NCBI GenBank assembly: GCA_046330185.1
Contig: JAXLTF010000013.1
Coordinates: 16,568 to 80,567 of the forward strand
Length of the DNA: 64,000 nucleotides
Direction: 5' to 3'
Source of the DNA: Actinomycetota bacterium
GTDB taxonomy: Bacteria > Actinomycetota > UBA4738 > HRBIN12
Position 1 is the stretch's first letter, and each line of letters begins with the position of its first letter. Below, piece after piece: positions 53,107 to 57,762 of this stretch. The notes beneath the pieces are model-generated. The model saw only the letters and a program-made list of their open reading frames with translations, had not been told where the DNA came from and did not search any database. Position numbers and translations under genes: made by a program.

Positions 53107-53424
53107 TCATCGATCCCTCGGGGCCATCCACCAGATCGCGAACGACAGCAAGAAGGAGACGACCTGGAACGCGAGGAGCCACCAGACGATCGTCATCCGC
53201 TCCTCGGAGGTAGGCATCGAGGGCCGTCGCGCGCCCCAGAGTTGGCCGACGACCACCGTCGCCACCAGGGCGATCCTCGCCACCACGACGGCGGTCCGCT
53301 CGGGATCCCGGTCCGCTCCGGCGCCCGGACCGGGCCCCGGCGCCCCGAGCCGAAGCGGAGGCGGGGCGTCCGCTTCAACGCACCACCGCCCGGACCGCGT
53401 AAACACCGTCGGATCGTTCCTCAA
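53107..53424 (-). CDS. hypothetical small membrane protein (true start probably internal)
   Basis: Only the C-terminal part looks protein-like ('RIALVATVVVGQLW...EERMTIVWWLLAFQVVSFLLSFAIWWMAP', two TM helices). It lies downstream of the Rieske gene on the same strand. Confidence 0.3.
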   Translation of the reverse strand: MRNDPTVFTRSGRWCVEADAPPPLRLGAPGPGPGAGADRDPERTAVVVARIALVATVVVGQLWGARRPSMPTSEERMTIVWWLLAFQVVSFLLSFAIWWMAPRDR

Positions 53425-53862
53425 GCTCGATCACCGGTAGCGGGCGGGGCGGTGGACCGGACAGCACCCCGCGCCGTCGAGCGCCGAGAAGCGTCCCTGG
53501 TGACACGGGCAGAGCAGCTCGTCGCGTTCGCGCTCCCACAGGACGGCGCACGACAGGTGCGTGCAGATGGACGAGTACGCGACCAGCGAGCCGTCCGGCA
53601 GCCGCATGGCGATCGCTCGATCGTCCGGACCCGGATACGAGAACGCAAAGGCCTCGCCCTGCTCGATCCGGCCAGCGATCCGCACGGCTCCGACGGACCC
53701 CGTCCGGCGGGGGAACAGCCCCGCCGCGACCGCGACGGCGCCCAGGACCAGCCCGCCCGAGATCGTGACCAAGATCCGCAGGTAGTCGCGCCGCGTCACG
53801 ACCGCGTCTGCGCGGATCCGCTCGAAGGCCGAAGGTTCGGCGCGGCGGCGAGCGCGGCTCAC
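53375..53862 (-). CDS. Rieske [2Fe-2S] protein with a Tat-type signal anchor; 1-nt indel near 53,468
   Basis: The GTG start overlaps the ferredoxin stop (GTGA). 'VVTRRDYLRILVTISGGLVLGAVAVAAG' is a twin-arginine motif plus TM segment. 'CTHLSC...CPCHQGRF' is the Rieske ligand set. The C-terminus 'VLSGPPPRPLPVIELEERSDGVYAVRAVVR*' is in the adjacent frame after a G-run. Confidence 0.8.
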
Positions 53863-54425
53863 GGCGTCCCCGGGATCGCGTCGGCGACGTAGTCCCTCGG
53901 CACGACCACCGCGACCCCCGTGCGGATCGCCTGCTCGCCGAAGACCGTGAGATCGGTCGCCGCGGCGTTCGGCCGATCGGCCAGGAGCTCGTCGATGCTC
54001 CCGTAGAAGATCGCTCCCGTCGGGCAGACGGCCGCGCACATCGGGGCGAGACCGACCGAGGAGCGGTCGTAGCACATGTTGCACTTGTACTGGAGCATCT
54101 CCTCCATCTCGATCTTGGGCACGCCGAAGGGACACGCGTGCACGCAGTTCGCGCACGCGATGCAGCGCTCCTTCGCGGCCTCATGCACCACTCCGTCCGC
54201 GGTGACGAGGATCGCGTCCGTGGGGCACACCTCCGCGCACGGCGCCACGGGATCCTCGCAGTGCATGCACACCGTCGGCATCGAGGCGACCGTCGAACCC
54301 TGGTCGATGTAGTCGAGGCTGATCATCGACTTACCCCGGTGCGAGTCGCATTCACGGCAGCCCGCGACGCACGCCTGGCAGCCGATGCAACGCCCTGGAT
54401 CGATGAACAGGGTCCTGCCCATCAT
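53859..54425 (-). CDS. 4x[4Fe-4S] ferredoxin-type electron-transfer subunit (DmsB/NrfC/PsrB-like)
   Basis: There are four cysteine groups: 'CIGCQACVAGC', 'CMHCEDPVAPCAEVCP', 'CIACANCVHACP' and 'CNMCYDRSSVGLAPMCAAVCP'. Its ATGATG start overlaps the stop of the molybdoenzyme gene. Confidence 0.85.
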   Translation of the reverse strand: MMGRTLFIDPGRCIGCQACVAGCRECDSHRGKSMISLDYIDQGSTVASMPTVCMHCEDPVAPCAEVCPTDAILVTADGVVHEAAKERCIACANCVHACPFGVPKIEMEEMLQYKCNMCYDRSSVGLAPMCAAVCPTGAIFYGSIDELLADRPNAAATDLTVFGEQAIRTGVAVVVPRDYVADAIPGTP

Positions 54426-56713: not shown

Positions 56714-56715
56714 CG

Positions 56716-57762
56716 TCAGAACCCGCGTTTGACGTGCCGCAGGTATGCCTCCCCACGCTGCTCCCGCTTGCACCGGGGACAGGTCTCGACGAGCTCGCGA
56801 TACGCGAGATCGAGCTCGTCCATCGTCTCCTGCAGGTTGCGCACGAACGCCGCGCCCTCGAGCGGCGCGCCGCACCGCCTGCAGTCGACGACGCCTTCTC
56901 GGTCCTGTGAGGTCTGCTTGAACATGTGCACCCCCACGGTCGCGGGCCGCTGGATCACGTGGAAGAACTTCCCGAACGGGATGAAGATGAGCGACAGCAC
57001 CACCACGCCCATGTGGAGGATCGCGAGGAAGCCGTAGCCCTCGCCATCCAGCAGCGCGCTCGACATGGTCAGCAACAGGCCGGTCGCCGAGATCGCAACC
57101 AGCGCCACCAGCGGCACGAAGTCGTAGCCCAGGCGCTGACCGCTCGATGCCTCCCGGTCTCGGATGCGGCGCCAGATGAAGTAGCCGCATCCCGCGATCA
57201 CGAGCACGGCCGAGATGTCGAGGATGTGGAACGTGATCCACCCCAGCCACGTGAGCGGATCGAACGTGATGACGTTCACGCCGAAGACGAACATCCGGTA
57301 CCGATCCGACGCCGTCGCCTCGAAGTGGATCCACCCCCAAGCGAGCGTGAAGGTCATCAGCGTGGCGATGACCACGCCCCAGAACAGCGACTGGTGCGCG
57401 AGCCAGCGGCCGGTTCCGCGCCGCCTGATGAAGGTCTGCAGACCCAGGTAGCTCACGATGCCCCGCGGCACCATCGAGGGGAACCGACGGAAGTTCGCGA
57501 ACGATAGGAACGCCCGCCAGCCGCGGACCAGGTAGCGGCGCGTGGGTGGGGTCTGCACCCACATCACGTACCTGTACACGACCCCGAACGTCAGGACGAC
57601 GGTCGCGGTCGCGTACCCGATCAACGCGGCATCGAAGTTGCGGAGCGCATCGCTCCCGAAGTAGATCATGACCGCCAGGACCACCGCGACGATCGCCCCG
57701 GCCACGCTGGCGCGGACGCTCTCCCGCGAAGGCCCCGTCGCCCCGAGCCCGTCGCTGTCCAT
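56716..57762 (-). CDS. NarI/DsrM-like membrane cytochrome-b-type subunit with a C-terminal CxxC...CxxC zinc-ribbon
   Basis: There are five or six TM segments. 'LSLIFIPFGKFFHVIQRP' resembles the conserved last-helix motif of NarI/HdrE/DsrM-type proteins, and several His residues sit in TM helices. The tail is 'CRRCGAPLEG...TCPRCKRE'. Its stop lies 2 nt before the molybdoenzyme ATG. The start (57762) is tentative. Confidence 0.6.
   Translation of the reverse strand: MDSDGLGATGPSRESVRASVAGAIVAVVLAVMIYFGSDALRNFDAALIGYATATVVLTFGVVYRYVMWVQTPPTRRYLVRGWRAFLSFANFRRFPSMVPRGIVSYLGLQTFIRRRGTGRWLAHQSLFWGVVIATLMTFTLAWGWIHFEATASDRYRMFVFGVNVITFDPLTWLGWITFHILDISAVLVIAGCGYFIWRRIRDREASSGQRLGYDFVPLVALVAISATGLLLTMSSALLDGEGYGFLAILHMGVVVLSLIFIPFGKFFHVIQRPATVGVHMFKQTSQDREGVVDCRRCGAPLEGAAFVRNLQETMDELDLAYRELVETCPRCKREQRGEAYLRHVKRGF

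Follow-up and report, generated by a model that had tools for sequence, protein, structure and literature searches.

A Conserved Operon for a Nas-Type Molybdoenzyme with a NarI-Like Cytochrome b, a Four-Cluster Ferredoxin and a Rieske Protein Bearing a Twin-Arginine Motif

A stretch of 64,000 nucleotides from an Actinomycetota bacterium (assembly GCA_046330185.1, contig JAXLTF010000013.1, positions 16,568 to 80,567), called the window throughout this text, carries four packed minus-strand genes at positions 53375-57762. They encode a NarI-like cytochrome b, a molybdenum (Mo) subunit of the Nas/NarB type, a ferredoxin and a Rieske protein, and they are the core of a five-gene module, of which a DUF6755 membrane protein is the fifth member. 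Judged from its sequence, this conserved operon probably specifies a membrane-bound nitrate reductase with a redox loop like that of NarGHI and with the Rieske protein on the outer face, a reading that we hold with moderate confidence. The initial annotation, made from the letters of the window and their open reading frames (ORFs), had already described the four genes. What it found is real and conserved, and its interpretation is largely right, but the fifth gene and an anion carrier gene were overlooked.

Gene Organization and Conservation

The stop codon of the cytochrome b gene (TGA, 56718-56716) is followed after 2 nucleotides (nt) by the ATG of the Mo subunit at 56713. Further downstream, the TGA of the Mo subunit and the start of the ferredoxin overlap as ATGA (54425-54422), and the ferredoxin TGA and the Rieske GTG overlap as GTGA (53862-53859). 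These junctions match exactly the 2-nt gap and the 4-nt overlaps given in the initial annotation, and the 4-nt overlaps are also kept in relatives. An alternative start of the cytochrome b is an in-frame TTG at 57777, with GGGAGG 4 nt upstream. The DUF6755 protein may start at GTG 53286 or at GTG 53406, the latter overlapping the 3' end of the Rieske gene (Table 1).

Table 1. Features of the module and adjoining genes in the window (aa, amino acids; TM, transmembrane).
Feature	Position	Strand	Remarks
NarI-type cytochrome b	56716-57762	-	348 aa, six predicted TM helices
Candidate heme ligands of cytochrome b			H123/H268, cytoplasmic side; H179/H250, outer side
Nas/NarB-type catalytic subunit with Mo-bis(pyranopterin guanine dinucleotide) (Mo-bisPGD)	54422-56713	-	763 aa
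Four-[4Fe-4S] ferredoxin-like subunit	53859-54425	-	188 aa, 16 Cys
bc-type Rieske [2Fe-2S] protein	53375-53862	-	GTG start at 53862; ORF as written ends at 53431
DUF6755 two-TM small membrane protein	53107-53286 or longer	-	Pfam matches of relatives
SLAC1/TehA-type anion channel pseudogene	52069-53072	-	Pfam SLAC1 on two separate ORFs
Polytopic membrane protein, family unassigned	57888-59135	-	415 aa, directly upstream of the module

The membrane protein of this operon is widespread. Scoring of 8000 candidate 90%-identity clusters yielded 786 matches at E ≤ 1e-3, and a library clustered at 50% identity contains 938 representatives. In a scan of one genome per species, 189 species carry matches, most of them uncultured Actinomycetota, including Acidimicrobiia and Iamia, together with two Streptomyces. 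The Chloroflexota are represented by Thermosporothrix hazakensis ATCC BAA-1881, Ktedonobacteria, Thermomicrobiales, Roseiflexaceae and Dehalococcoidia. Other carriers are Gemmatimonadaceae, Vicinamibacterales and metagenome-assembled genomes (MAGs) of a Sphingomonadaceae and an Anaeromyxobacteraceae.

The order cytochrome b, Mo subunit, ferredoxin, Rieske protein is kept in 61 of the 62 loci of sufficient length, down to ~40% identity and across at least five phyla (Actinomycetota, Chloroflexota, Gemmatimonadota, Acidobacteriota and Proteobacteria). With this shared order, the arrangement is far beyond chance. The locus search used the closer alignment (A1) and under-samples the distant members of the family. 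The module genes are thus co-conserved across phyla, as brought out by a survey of neighborhoods that the initial annotation had proposed. The sole long locus without the full set (L077, a Chloroflexota MAG, JAUJOR010000004.1) has fragments of the Mo gene after the cytochrome gene, which suggests a degraded copy of the module. Directly after the Rieske gene, a DUF6755-type ORF is present in 27 loci, including Dehalococcoidia and the window, and the relatives share 35-85% tblastn identity with the window ORF.

The Catalytic and Ferredoxin Subunits

The catalytic subunit is composed of the Pfam domains Molybdop_Fe4S4 (residues 39-91), Molybdopterin and Molydop_binding. Its best NCBIfam match is NasC (NF047855), with 802.3 bits over residues 35-719; Fdh-alpha (594.6 bits), haloarchaeal NasA (400 bits) and NapA (242 bits) score lower. 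Since the NasC score stays under the equivalog cutoff (802 vs. 1100 bits), we only infer the substrate of this enzyme. The cutoffs of Fdh-alpha (TIGR01591, 666 bits) and of the Aio large-subunit model (TIGR02693, 146.8 vs. 359 bits) are not reached either.

The N-terminal CxxCxxxC...C motif for a [4Fe-4S] cluster, a Cys ligand of Mo followed by Met and the lack of a signal peptide are the sequence characters of Nas and NarB, and all are present. The ligand position is Cys172-Met in GRLCMVSA (codon 56198-56200), and the Cys-Met motif is conserved in 70 of 75 family members. The nearest PDB relatives are cytoplasmic formate dehydrogenases and the Desulfovibrio NapA, and no Nas or NarB structure is among the PDB matches. 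An identity as formate dehydrogenase was nevertheless dropped, despite these best matches, on account of the Cys-Met motif and of the higher NasC score. In the alignment with F420-dependent formate dehydrogenase, the ligand of the Mo subunit is followed by Met and not by His, while formate dehydrogenases have selenocysteine or Cys followed by His.

The 38-residue N-terminal extension of the Mo subunit is hydrophilic, and no twin-arginine motif or hydrophobic stretch is found at the N-termini in any lineage examined. The earlier description of a Nas/NarB-type enzyme without signal peptide is in agreement with this extension and with NasC as the top match. At the level of the whole system the likeness ends: Nas enzymes are soluble, fed by ferredoxin, flavodoxin or NAD(P)H and usually have a nitrite reductase nearby, a setting that the module does not offer. 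A block 'MSVNKDFF..RDFNYDFQ' is conserved at the N-terminus of the Mo subunit in loci L045-L084 (Chloroflexota, Gemmatimonadota and others).

The ferredoxin is a four-cluster electron-transfer subunit of the complex iron-sulfur molybdoenzyme type (DmsB/FdnH/NarH-like). Its four [4Fe-4S] motifs, made up of the 16 Cys, are readable directly from the sequence, and the Pfam domain Fer4_11 (PF13247) is matched with 66.6 bits against a cutoff of 26.2. NCBIfam matches are the formate dehydrogenase beta subunit, HybA and DmsB, and the PDB relatives are FdnH, HycB, PsrB and ArrB, so that the DmsB-like nature proposed before holds. Inspection of the termini across the family revealed no signal peptide or TM segment. 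At the C-terminus, a block 'EEAWVL' is conserved in L045-L084.

The NarI-Like Cytochrome b

The relationship of the membrane subunit to NarI becomes visible at the level of the family. When a profile built from 41 diverse members was compared with the PDB, E. coli NarI came out on top (E = 6.7e-5), and in this alignment, H250 and H268 are paired with the NarI heme ligands H187 and H205. The His pattern taken as NarI-type consists of two His 18 residues apart in the last TM helix, in a PF(S/G)(R/K)LxH context, plus a His pair in earlier helices, the four serving as ligands of two b hemes. The alignment to the heme His of E. coli NarI agrees with the NarI-like b-type subunit of the initial annotation. 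Single sequences are less telling: the window protein has no Pfam match and stays under the threshold of PF02665 (Nitrate_red_gam), and relatives reach 20.8-23.9 bits where 22.9 are required, none having a stretch that is significant by itself. Only P0361, a frameshifted gene call, just passes. The NCBIfam matches (TmcC, TcuB and QmoC) are weak; for TmcC and QmoC, the best of them, E is about 1e-8 and the scores are far below the cutoffs.

Among the candidate heme ligands, H123, H250 and H268 are nearly invariant, as are four C-terminal cysteines. Residue 179 (window ~57226-57228) is His in 23 and Asn in 16 of the 41 diverse members (alignment A2), so the outer-face heme may be ligated otherwise, or be missing, in part of the family. 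Position 146 carries His in only 20 members of the same alignment. The four cysteines (C294, C297, C328 and C331) form a Cys4 knuckle, which gives a weak profile match (E = 1.2e-3) with the C-terminal Cys quartet of HycF. In the structure of formate hydrogenlyase, this quartet coordinates one metal ion at the contact with HycB and FdhF (PMC9474812). By analogy, HycB and FdhF are the counterparts of the ferredoxin and of the Mo subunit of the module.

On the predicted inner segments, the positive charges (K+R) number 11 (loop 2-3), 5 (loop 4-5) and 14 (C-terminal tail); the outer loops have 1, 2 and 0. These counts predict six helices with both termini in the cytoplasm. The AlphaFold2 model (mean predicted local distance difference test score, 78.7) exhibits a helical bundle, a beta-hairpin region on the outer face and the C-terminal knuckle. 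A Foldseek comparison of this model with the PDB returned nothing significant: the best hits, with E = 0.06, are G-protein-coupled receptors, EtfD ranks 9th and NarI 30th.

In three distant relatives (P0247, P0283 and P0295), a NarK-family domain of the major facilitator superfamily (MFS) forms the N-terminal part of a clean, natural fusion with a cytochrome b domain. Such a fusion means that the N-terminus of the cytochrome domain must be cytoplasmic. The NCBI name 'MFS transporter' for the unfused cytochrome looks like a mis-annotation, possibly inherited from the NarK-fused members, and this naming conceals the system. Two apparent fusions of cytochrome and Mo subunit (P0361 and P0367) were rejected as out-of-frame gene calls. 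An Rrf2 domain ahead of the cytochrome match in P0385 was taken only as an adjacent Rrf2 gene, as in L003.

The Rieske Protein

The last protein of the four-gene core has the features of the bc/b6f-type Rieske proteins: cluster boxes with the disulfide cysteines, a twin-arginine translocation (Tat) motif and a hydrophobic anchor. The boxes CTHLSC and CPCHQG, which include both disulfide cysteines, are retained in all of 61 proteins. A Pfam Rieske match is present, the best NCBIfam matches are actinobacterial QcrA and b6f PetC, and the PDB relatives comprise b6f/bc-type proteins, the Thermus Rieske protein, SoxF and AioB. The Aio small-subunit model (TIGR02694) gives 33.1 bits, vs. a cutoff of 95.7. 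The module is nevertheless not a bc/b6f complex, as the membrane partner is NarI-like and lacks the cytochrome b/b6 Pfam match (PF00033/PF13631). No cytochrome c gene recurs in the module flanks.

The Tat motif TRRDYLR occupies residues 23-29 (53776-53796); next come a hydrophobic segment rich in Gly and Ser and then a basic c-region. The same succession, with the consensus [ST]RR[DEQG][YLF]L[RKQ], is found in 62 of 63 relatives, which supports the twin-arginine signal reported earlier; export itself is a prediction. In Chloroflexota and others (L045-L084), a conserved block such as FPYHWDADD stands ahead of the RR motif. Because of this block, the N-terminal tail may be retained in the cytoplasm rather than be a disposable signal. 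Conserved blocks outside the cofactor domains of the Mo subunit, the ferredoxin and the Rieske protein are candidate elements of inter-subunit contact.

Anion Carriers and Neighboring Genes

Exactly one anion carrier accompanies the module in 48 of the 53 non-redundant loci with enough downstream sequence: HPP in 28, NarK in 11 and SLAC1/TehA in 9. In the window, the SLAC1/TehA gene fills the slot that is occupied by HPP or NarK elsewhere. In cyanobacteria and chloroplasts, HPP proteins transport nitrite; those of the NarK family move both nitrate and nitrite. Together with the NarK fusions and the Nas-type active site with its Cys-Met motif, the carriers make nitrate the likely substrate.

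The other genes that recur near the module encode Crp/Fnr and Rrf2 regulators, GAF-HisKA_3 kinases together with NarL-type regulators, a DUF2249 protein and a small protein resembling COX1/NnrS. A recurrent nitrite reductase was not seen in the flanks. This neighborhood bears on whether the system is assimilatory. In that case, chemistry and orientation would be the same, with the quinol pool as donor and the nitrite passed to a nitrite reductase encoded elsewhere. Surveys and reviews regard Nas-type Mo subunits as soluble, strictly cytoplasmic and assimilatory. One recent family-wide survey, for instance, assigns Nas-type enzymes exclusively to assimilation (PMC10100899). The Mo subunit is indeed nearest to NasC, the annotation of the Joint Genome Institute (JGI) names it an assimilatory catalytic subunit, NarK and HPP carriers also serve assimilation, and the bacteria concerned are mostly aerobic soil Actinomycetota and Chloroflexota. 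Moreover, Nas systems may use a Rieske-type partner, NasG of Paracoccus being an example (PMC5424462). Still, recurrent nirBD, nirA or sirohaem genes are absent from the surroundings of the module, and its regulators are of the Crp/Fnr, Rrf2 and GAF-kinase/NarL types and not of the nitrogen-status type. NasG, a soluble and NirD-like protein, also differs from the Rieske protein of the module, which is bc-type and bears a Tat signal, and a redox-loop architecture is typical of energy conservation. We therefore consider an assimilatory role improbable.

The 415-aa protein encoded directly upstream of the module has conserved His residues and no Pfam or NCBIfam match. Its homologues adjoin the module in nine loci, and it may be an accessory subunit or an NnrS-like protein. 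Downstream, on the opposite strand and ~1.5 kb from the module, the N-terminal ~60 aa of a plus-strand gene (51615-52301) are cupredoxin-like, with the C-x2-H-x2-M copper motif in YVCSLHETM; the halocyanin-domain match is weak (E = 3.7e-4). A separate lipoprotein cupredoxin recurs upstream in five loci (representative: Acidimicrobiaceae MAG L033). Both are possible outer-face partners of the Rieske protein. Further upstream in the window are DUF1697 and DUF2461 genes (59132-60438, minus strand), and next to them a gene for a secreted phytase that contains a PKD domain (60465-62522, plus strand). A DUF2461 gene is also near the module in L001.

Two more distant features of the window had been called as supporting context, namely a NirK gene (486-1955, plus strand) and moeA/moaC genes. 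The former encodes a multicopper protein with a fused C-terminal cupredoxin domain, but it reaches only 183 bits against the Cu-nitrite-reductase cutoff of 296. The moeA gene lies at 9086-10201 (minus strand; MoeA_N and MoCF_biosynth domains), while moaC was not located among the ORFs scanned. The NirK-like gene and moeA are 44-52 kb away from the module and are not conserved with it. Being distant and unlinked in other loci, they were given no weight.

Proposed Electron Pathway and Membrane Topology

In the proposed working model, the Mo subunit, with its Cys172 ligand and one [4Fe-4S] cluster, and the ferredoxin would remain in the cytoplasm. There, they would dock on the cytoplasmic face of the cytochrome b, probably via the C-terminal Cys4 metal knuckle. 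This location is suggested by the predicted cytoplasmic position of the Cys4 tail and of the proximal heme ligand equivalent to that of NarI, by the analogy with HycF, by the absence of a targeting signal in both proteins and by the need for nitrate import. Quinol would be oxidized at the outer-face end of the cytochrome b. Its electrons would cross the membrane via the heme(s) and pass through the four [4Fe-4S] clusters of the ferredoxin and the FS0 cluster to Mo, where nitrate would be reduced to nitrite. The dedicated carrier (NarK, HPP or SLAC1/TehA) would take nitrate in or nitrite out.

With the Mo subunit and the ferredoxin in the cytoplasm, the Rieske domain would come to lie on the outer face. 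The protein would be exported by Tat and kept there by an uncleaved or complex-bound signal segment, forming a high-potential one-electron centre beside the outer end of the cytochrome. It may either share in quinol oxidation or connect the complex with carriers on the outer face, as an entry or exit point. Quinol-linked nitrate reduction, or a variant with transmembrane electron transfer, was the proposal of the initial annotation and is still the best reading, strengthened by the NarK fusions, the adjacency of NarK and the HPP and SLAC1 carriers.

Several observations weigh against this model. The linear path from quinol over heme and iron-sulfur clusters to Mo needs no Rieske protein, and the near-universal conservation of the latter is left unexplained. 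The Mo subunit is under the NasC cutoff, and the HPP carriers would fit equally well the uptake of nitrite formed outside the cell. Homology of the cytochrome to NarI is weak (no Pfam match, a profile E of 6.7e-5 and nothing significant in Foldseek), and two hemes are not assured across the family with Asn at position 179 in 16 of 41 members. The similarity of the Cys4 tail to HycF is marginal (E = 1.2e-3). Finally, the Rieske and the channel genes are both disrupted in this window.

The position of the Rieske protein would be explained differently if the Mo subunit, the ferredoxin and the Rieske protein were exported together by Tat on the Rieske signal, and nitrate were reduced outside the cell. 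Electrons would then run from quinol to cytochrome b, Rieske protein, ferredoxin and Mo, a linear chain in which the Rieske centre has a natural place, and the system would be a functional analogue of the haloarchaeal pNar. Of the three, only the Rieske protein has a conserved Tat motif, and the Mo subunit and the ferredoxin are signal-less, as passengers would be. AioB is among the PDB relatives, the Rieske gene is translationally coupled to that of the ferredoxin, and HPP-type carriers could bring in nitrite made externally. We find such co-export rather unlikely all the same. The NarK fusions and adjacency imply a need for nitrate in the cytoplasm, and the Cys4 tail and the proximal ligand H268 lie, by prediction, on the cytoplasmic side, to which NarH binds in the case of NarI. 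The tail resembles, furthermore, the cytoplasmic HycF element that contacts HycB and FdhF, and the Mo subunit has cytoplasmic enzymes as its nearest relatives. No chaperone of the NarJ, TorD or NapD type recurs in the flanks, and the block ahead of the Rieske RR motif (FPYHWDADD) suggests a retained cytoplasmic tail.

A more speculative extension, to which we give a low probability, concerns the pairing of the Rieske protein with the cytochrome b within the quinol-linked model. The two may form a novel kind of quinol-oxidizing, Qo-like site at which the electrons of menaquinol part ways. The one of low potential would go through the heme(s) and the four-cluster wire to the Nas-type enzyme, and the high-potential one via the Rieske protein to cupredoxins, a Cu-nitrite reductase or an oxidase outside. 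Nas-type nitrate reductases normally require donors at the level of ferredoxin. If such a site exists, the module would be a Rieske/cytochrome b machine on a non-bc1 scaffold, coupling cytoplasmic nitrate reduction to electron transfer on the outer face.

A chain ending at a high-potential Rieske centre on the outer face also resembles an electron exit, and the system might thus run in reverse, oxidizing a cytoplasmic substrate such as nitrite, in the manner of nitrite oxidoreductase, with electrons leaving via the hemes to the Rieske protein and on to an oxidase, or might reduce another oxyanion. The Mo subunit is under the NasC cutoff, and anion carriers are not strictly specific. This is, in our view, very unlikely, as the Cys-Met motif, the affinity to NasC, the NarK fusions and the regulators of the hypoxia/NO (nitric oxide) type indicate nitrate reduction. 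Regarding nitrite oxidation, all characterized nitrite oxidoreductases are, to our knowledge, NarG-type enzymes with an Asp ligand, and none is Cys-ligated and Nas-type.

Comparison with Known Systems

Among known systems, the module would work most like NarGHI with NarK (E. coli type). Under the working model, both have a cytoplasm-facing Mo-bisPGD subunit with FS0, a four-cluster subunit, a NarI-type cytochrome, a NarK partner and a redox loop. The differences are considerable, however. NarG has ~1250 aa and an Asp ligand, the Mo subunit of the module ~760 aa and a Cys ligand. NarH has ~510 aa, compared to 188 aa for the ferredoxin. The module lacks NarJ, its cytochrome has six helices and a Cys4 tail, and the Rieske protein with its Tat motif and the DUF6755 protein come in addition.

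NasC, NasA and NarB share with the module the catalytic family, the ligand motif and the absence of a signal peptide, and the Paracoccus NasC-NasG-NasB system even has a Rieske-type partner. These enzymes are, on the contrary, soluble and fed by ferredoxin, flavodoxin or NAD(P)H modules, so that every partner differs; NasG itself is soluble and NirD-like, with no Tat motif or anchor. The haloarchaeal pNar (NarGH with the Rieske protein NarB and the cytochrome b NarC) is also a nitrate reductase with a Rieske protein and a b-type cytochrome. It has, however, a NarG-type Mo subunit and NarH, with the Tat signal on NarG, an outward active site and a bc1-type cytochrome b.

The initial annotation saw a topological puzzle in a Mo subunit without signal beside a Rieske protein with a Tat signal. 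Both observations stand, but precedents for such a combination had not been weighed. AioAB and IdrAB consist of a signal-less Mo subunit and a Rieske protein bearing the Tat signal, and they are the precedent for co-export by hitchhiking. They belong to another Mo clade, in which the cluster is [3Fe-4S] and the protein supplies no ligand to Mo, and they lack the four-cluster ferredoxin, the NarI-type cytochrome and NarK; in the module, the ferredoxin gene intervenes between those of the Mo subunit and the Rieske protein. Bridging across the membrane is the second precedent. In the Tmc, Hmc, Dsr and Qmo complexes of sulfate reducers, the NarI-type subunits TmcC, HmcE, DsrM and QmoC bridge an outer redox protein and a cytoplasmic iron-sulfur protein. 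TmcA, HmcA and DsrJ are entry or exit points for outer-face carriers in these complexes. Their outer partner is a multiheme cytochrome c, unlike the Rieske protein of the module, and their inner partner is a CCG-domain protein in place of a ferredoxin plus Mo enzyme.

Formate hydrogenlyase, lastly, shares the HycB-like ferredoxin, an FdhF-related Mo subunit and a CxxC...CxxC quartet as in the HycF extension. There, the quartet is located on the NuoI-like HycF, while the module carries it on the cytochrome b and has no hydrogenase. No description of the architecture as a whole was found in the searchable literature outside subscription-only papers. Nor does a bc-type Rieske protein combined with a NarI-type cytochrome appear to have a precedent there.

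Disrupted Genes in the Window

The distal half of the operon is damaged in the window. The Rieske frame stops at 53431, after ...CPCHQGRFSALDGAGCCPVHRPARYR, and the canonical C-terminus (VLSGPPPRPLPVIELEERSDGVYAVRAVVR, followed by the stop) sits in another frame that ends at 53375. The initial annotation had taken the Rieske gene as one frame to 53375, a reading that crossed the frameshift unremarked. Its four-gene span of 53375-57762 is right for the genes and their junctions, but the Rieske frame within it is interrupted. The cause is a 2-bp GG insertion at 53469-53470, and the truncation falls after the second cluster box. A JGI contig (L085) lacks the two G's and encodes an intact Rieske protein of 161 aa. 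In the cytochrome and Mo genes, both sequences are ~99% identical in DNA, with 12 differences over 990 nt of the former and 20 over 2292 nt of the latter.

The SLAC1/TehA gene, intact in L085 (348 aa), is disrupted in the window by no fewer than three frameshifts, so that its parts are spread over at least three frames; the third frame carries 'TPPYWINMGALAITTLA'. Relative to L085, the indels are located at about 52850, 52617/52606, 52476-52479 and 52424. Upstream, the cytochrome and Mo genes have zero indels, and in the 5 kb upstream of the Rieske frameshift, the only indels are one compensating pair near the 3' end of the ferredoxin gene. As this upstream part is so poor in indels, the breakage of the channel gene points to genuine decay or to an assembly error confined to this region. 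For the distal half of the operon as a whole, the choice is likewise between ongoing decay in the organism and a local fault in the sequence. The encoded system may, therefore, be impaired in this genome, unless the errors are in the sequence at the disrupted sites.

Implications

The module defines a distinct Nas subfamily with membrane partners. It occurs in 189 genomes at the species level and in metagenomic protein clusters that number in the hundreds, and most of these come from uncultured Actinomycetota and Chloroflexota. The combination of a Rieske protein with a NarI-type cytochrome bears on the evolution of quinol-oxidizing sites. If the system is quinol-linked and energy-conserving, it would be a third architecture for membrane-bound nitrate reduction, beside Nar and Nap, and many metagenomic 'nasA' counts would be wrongly assigned to assimilation. 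Genes of soil bacteria that are annotated as assimilatory may, in that case, serve membrane-linked nitrate reduction.

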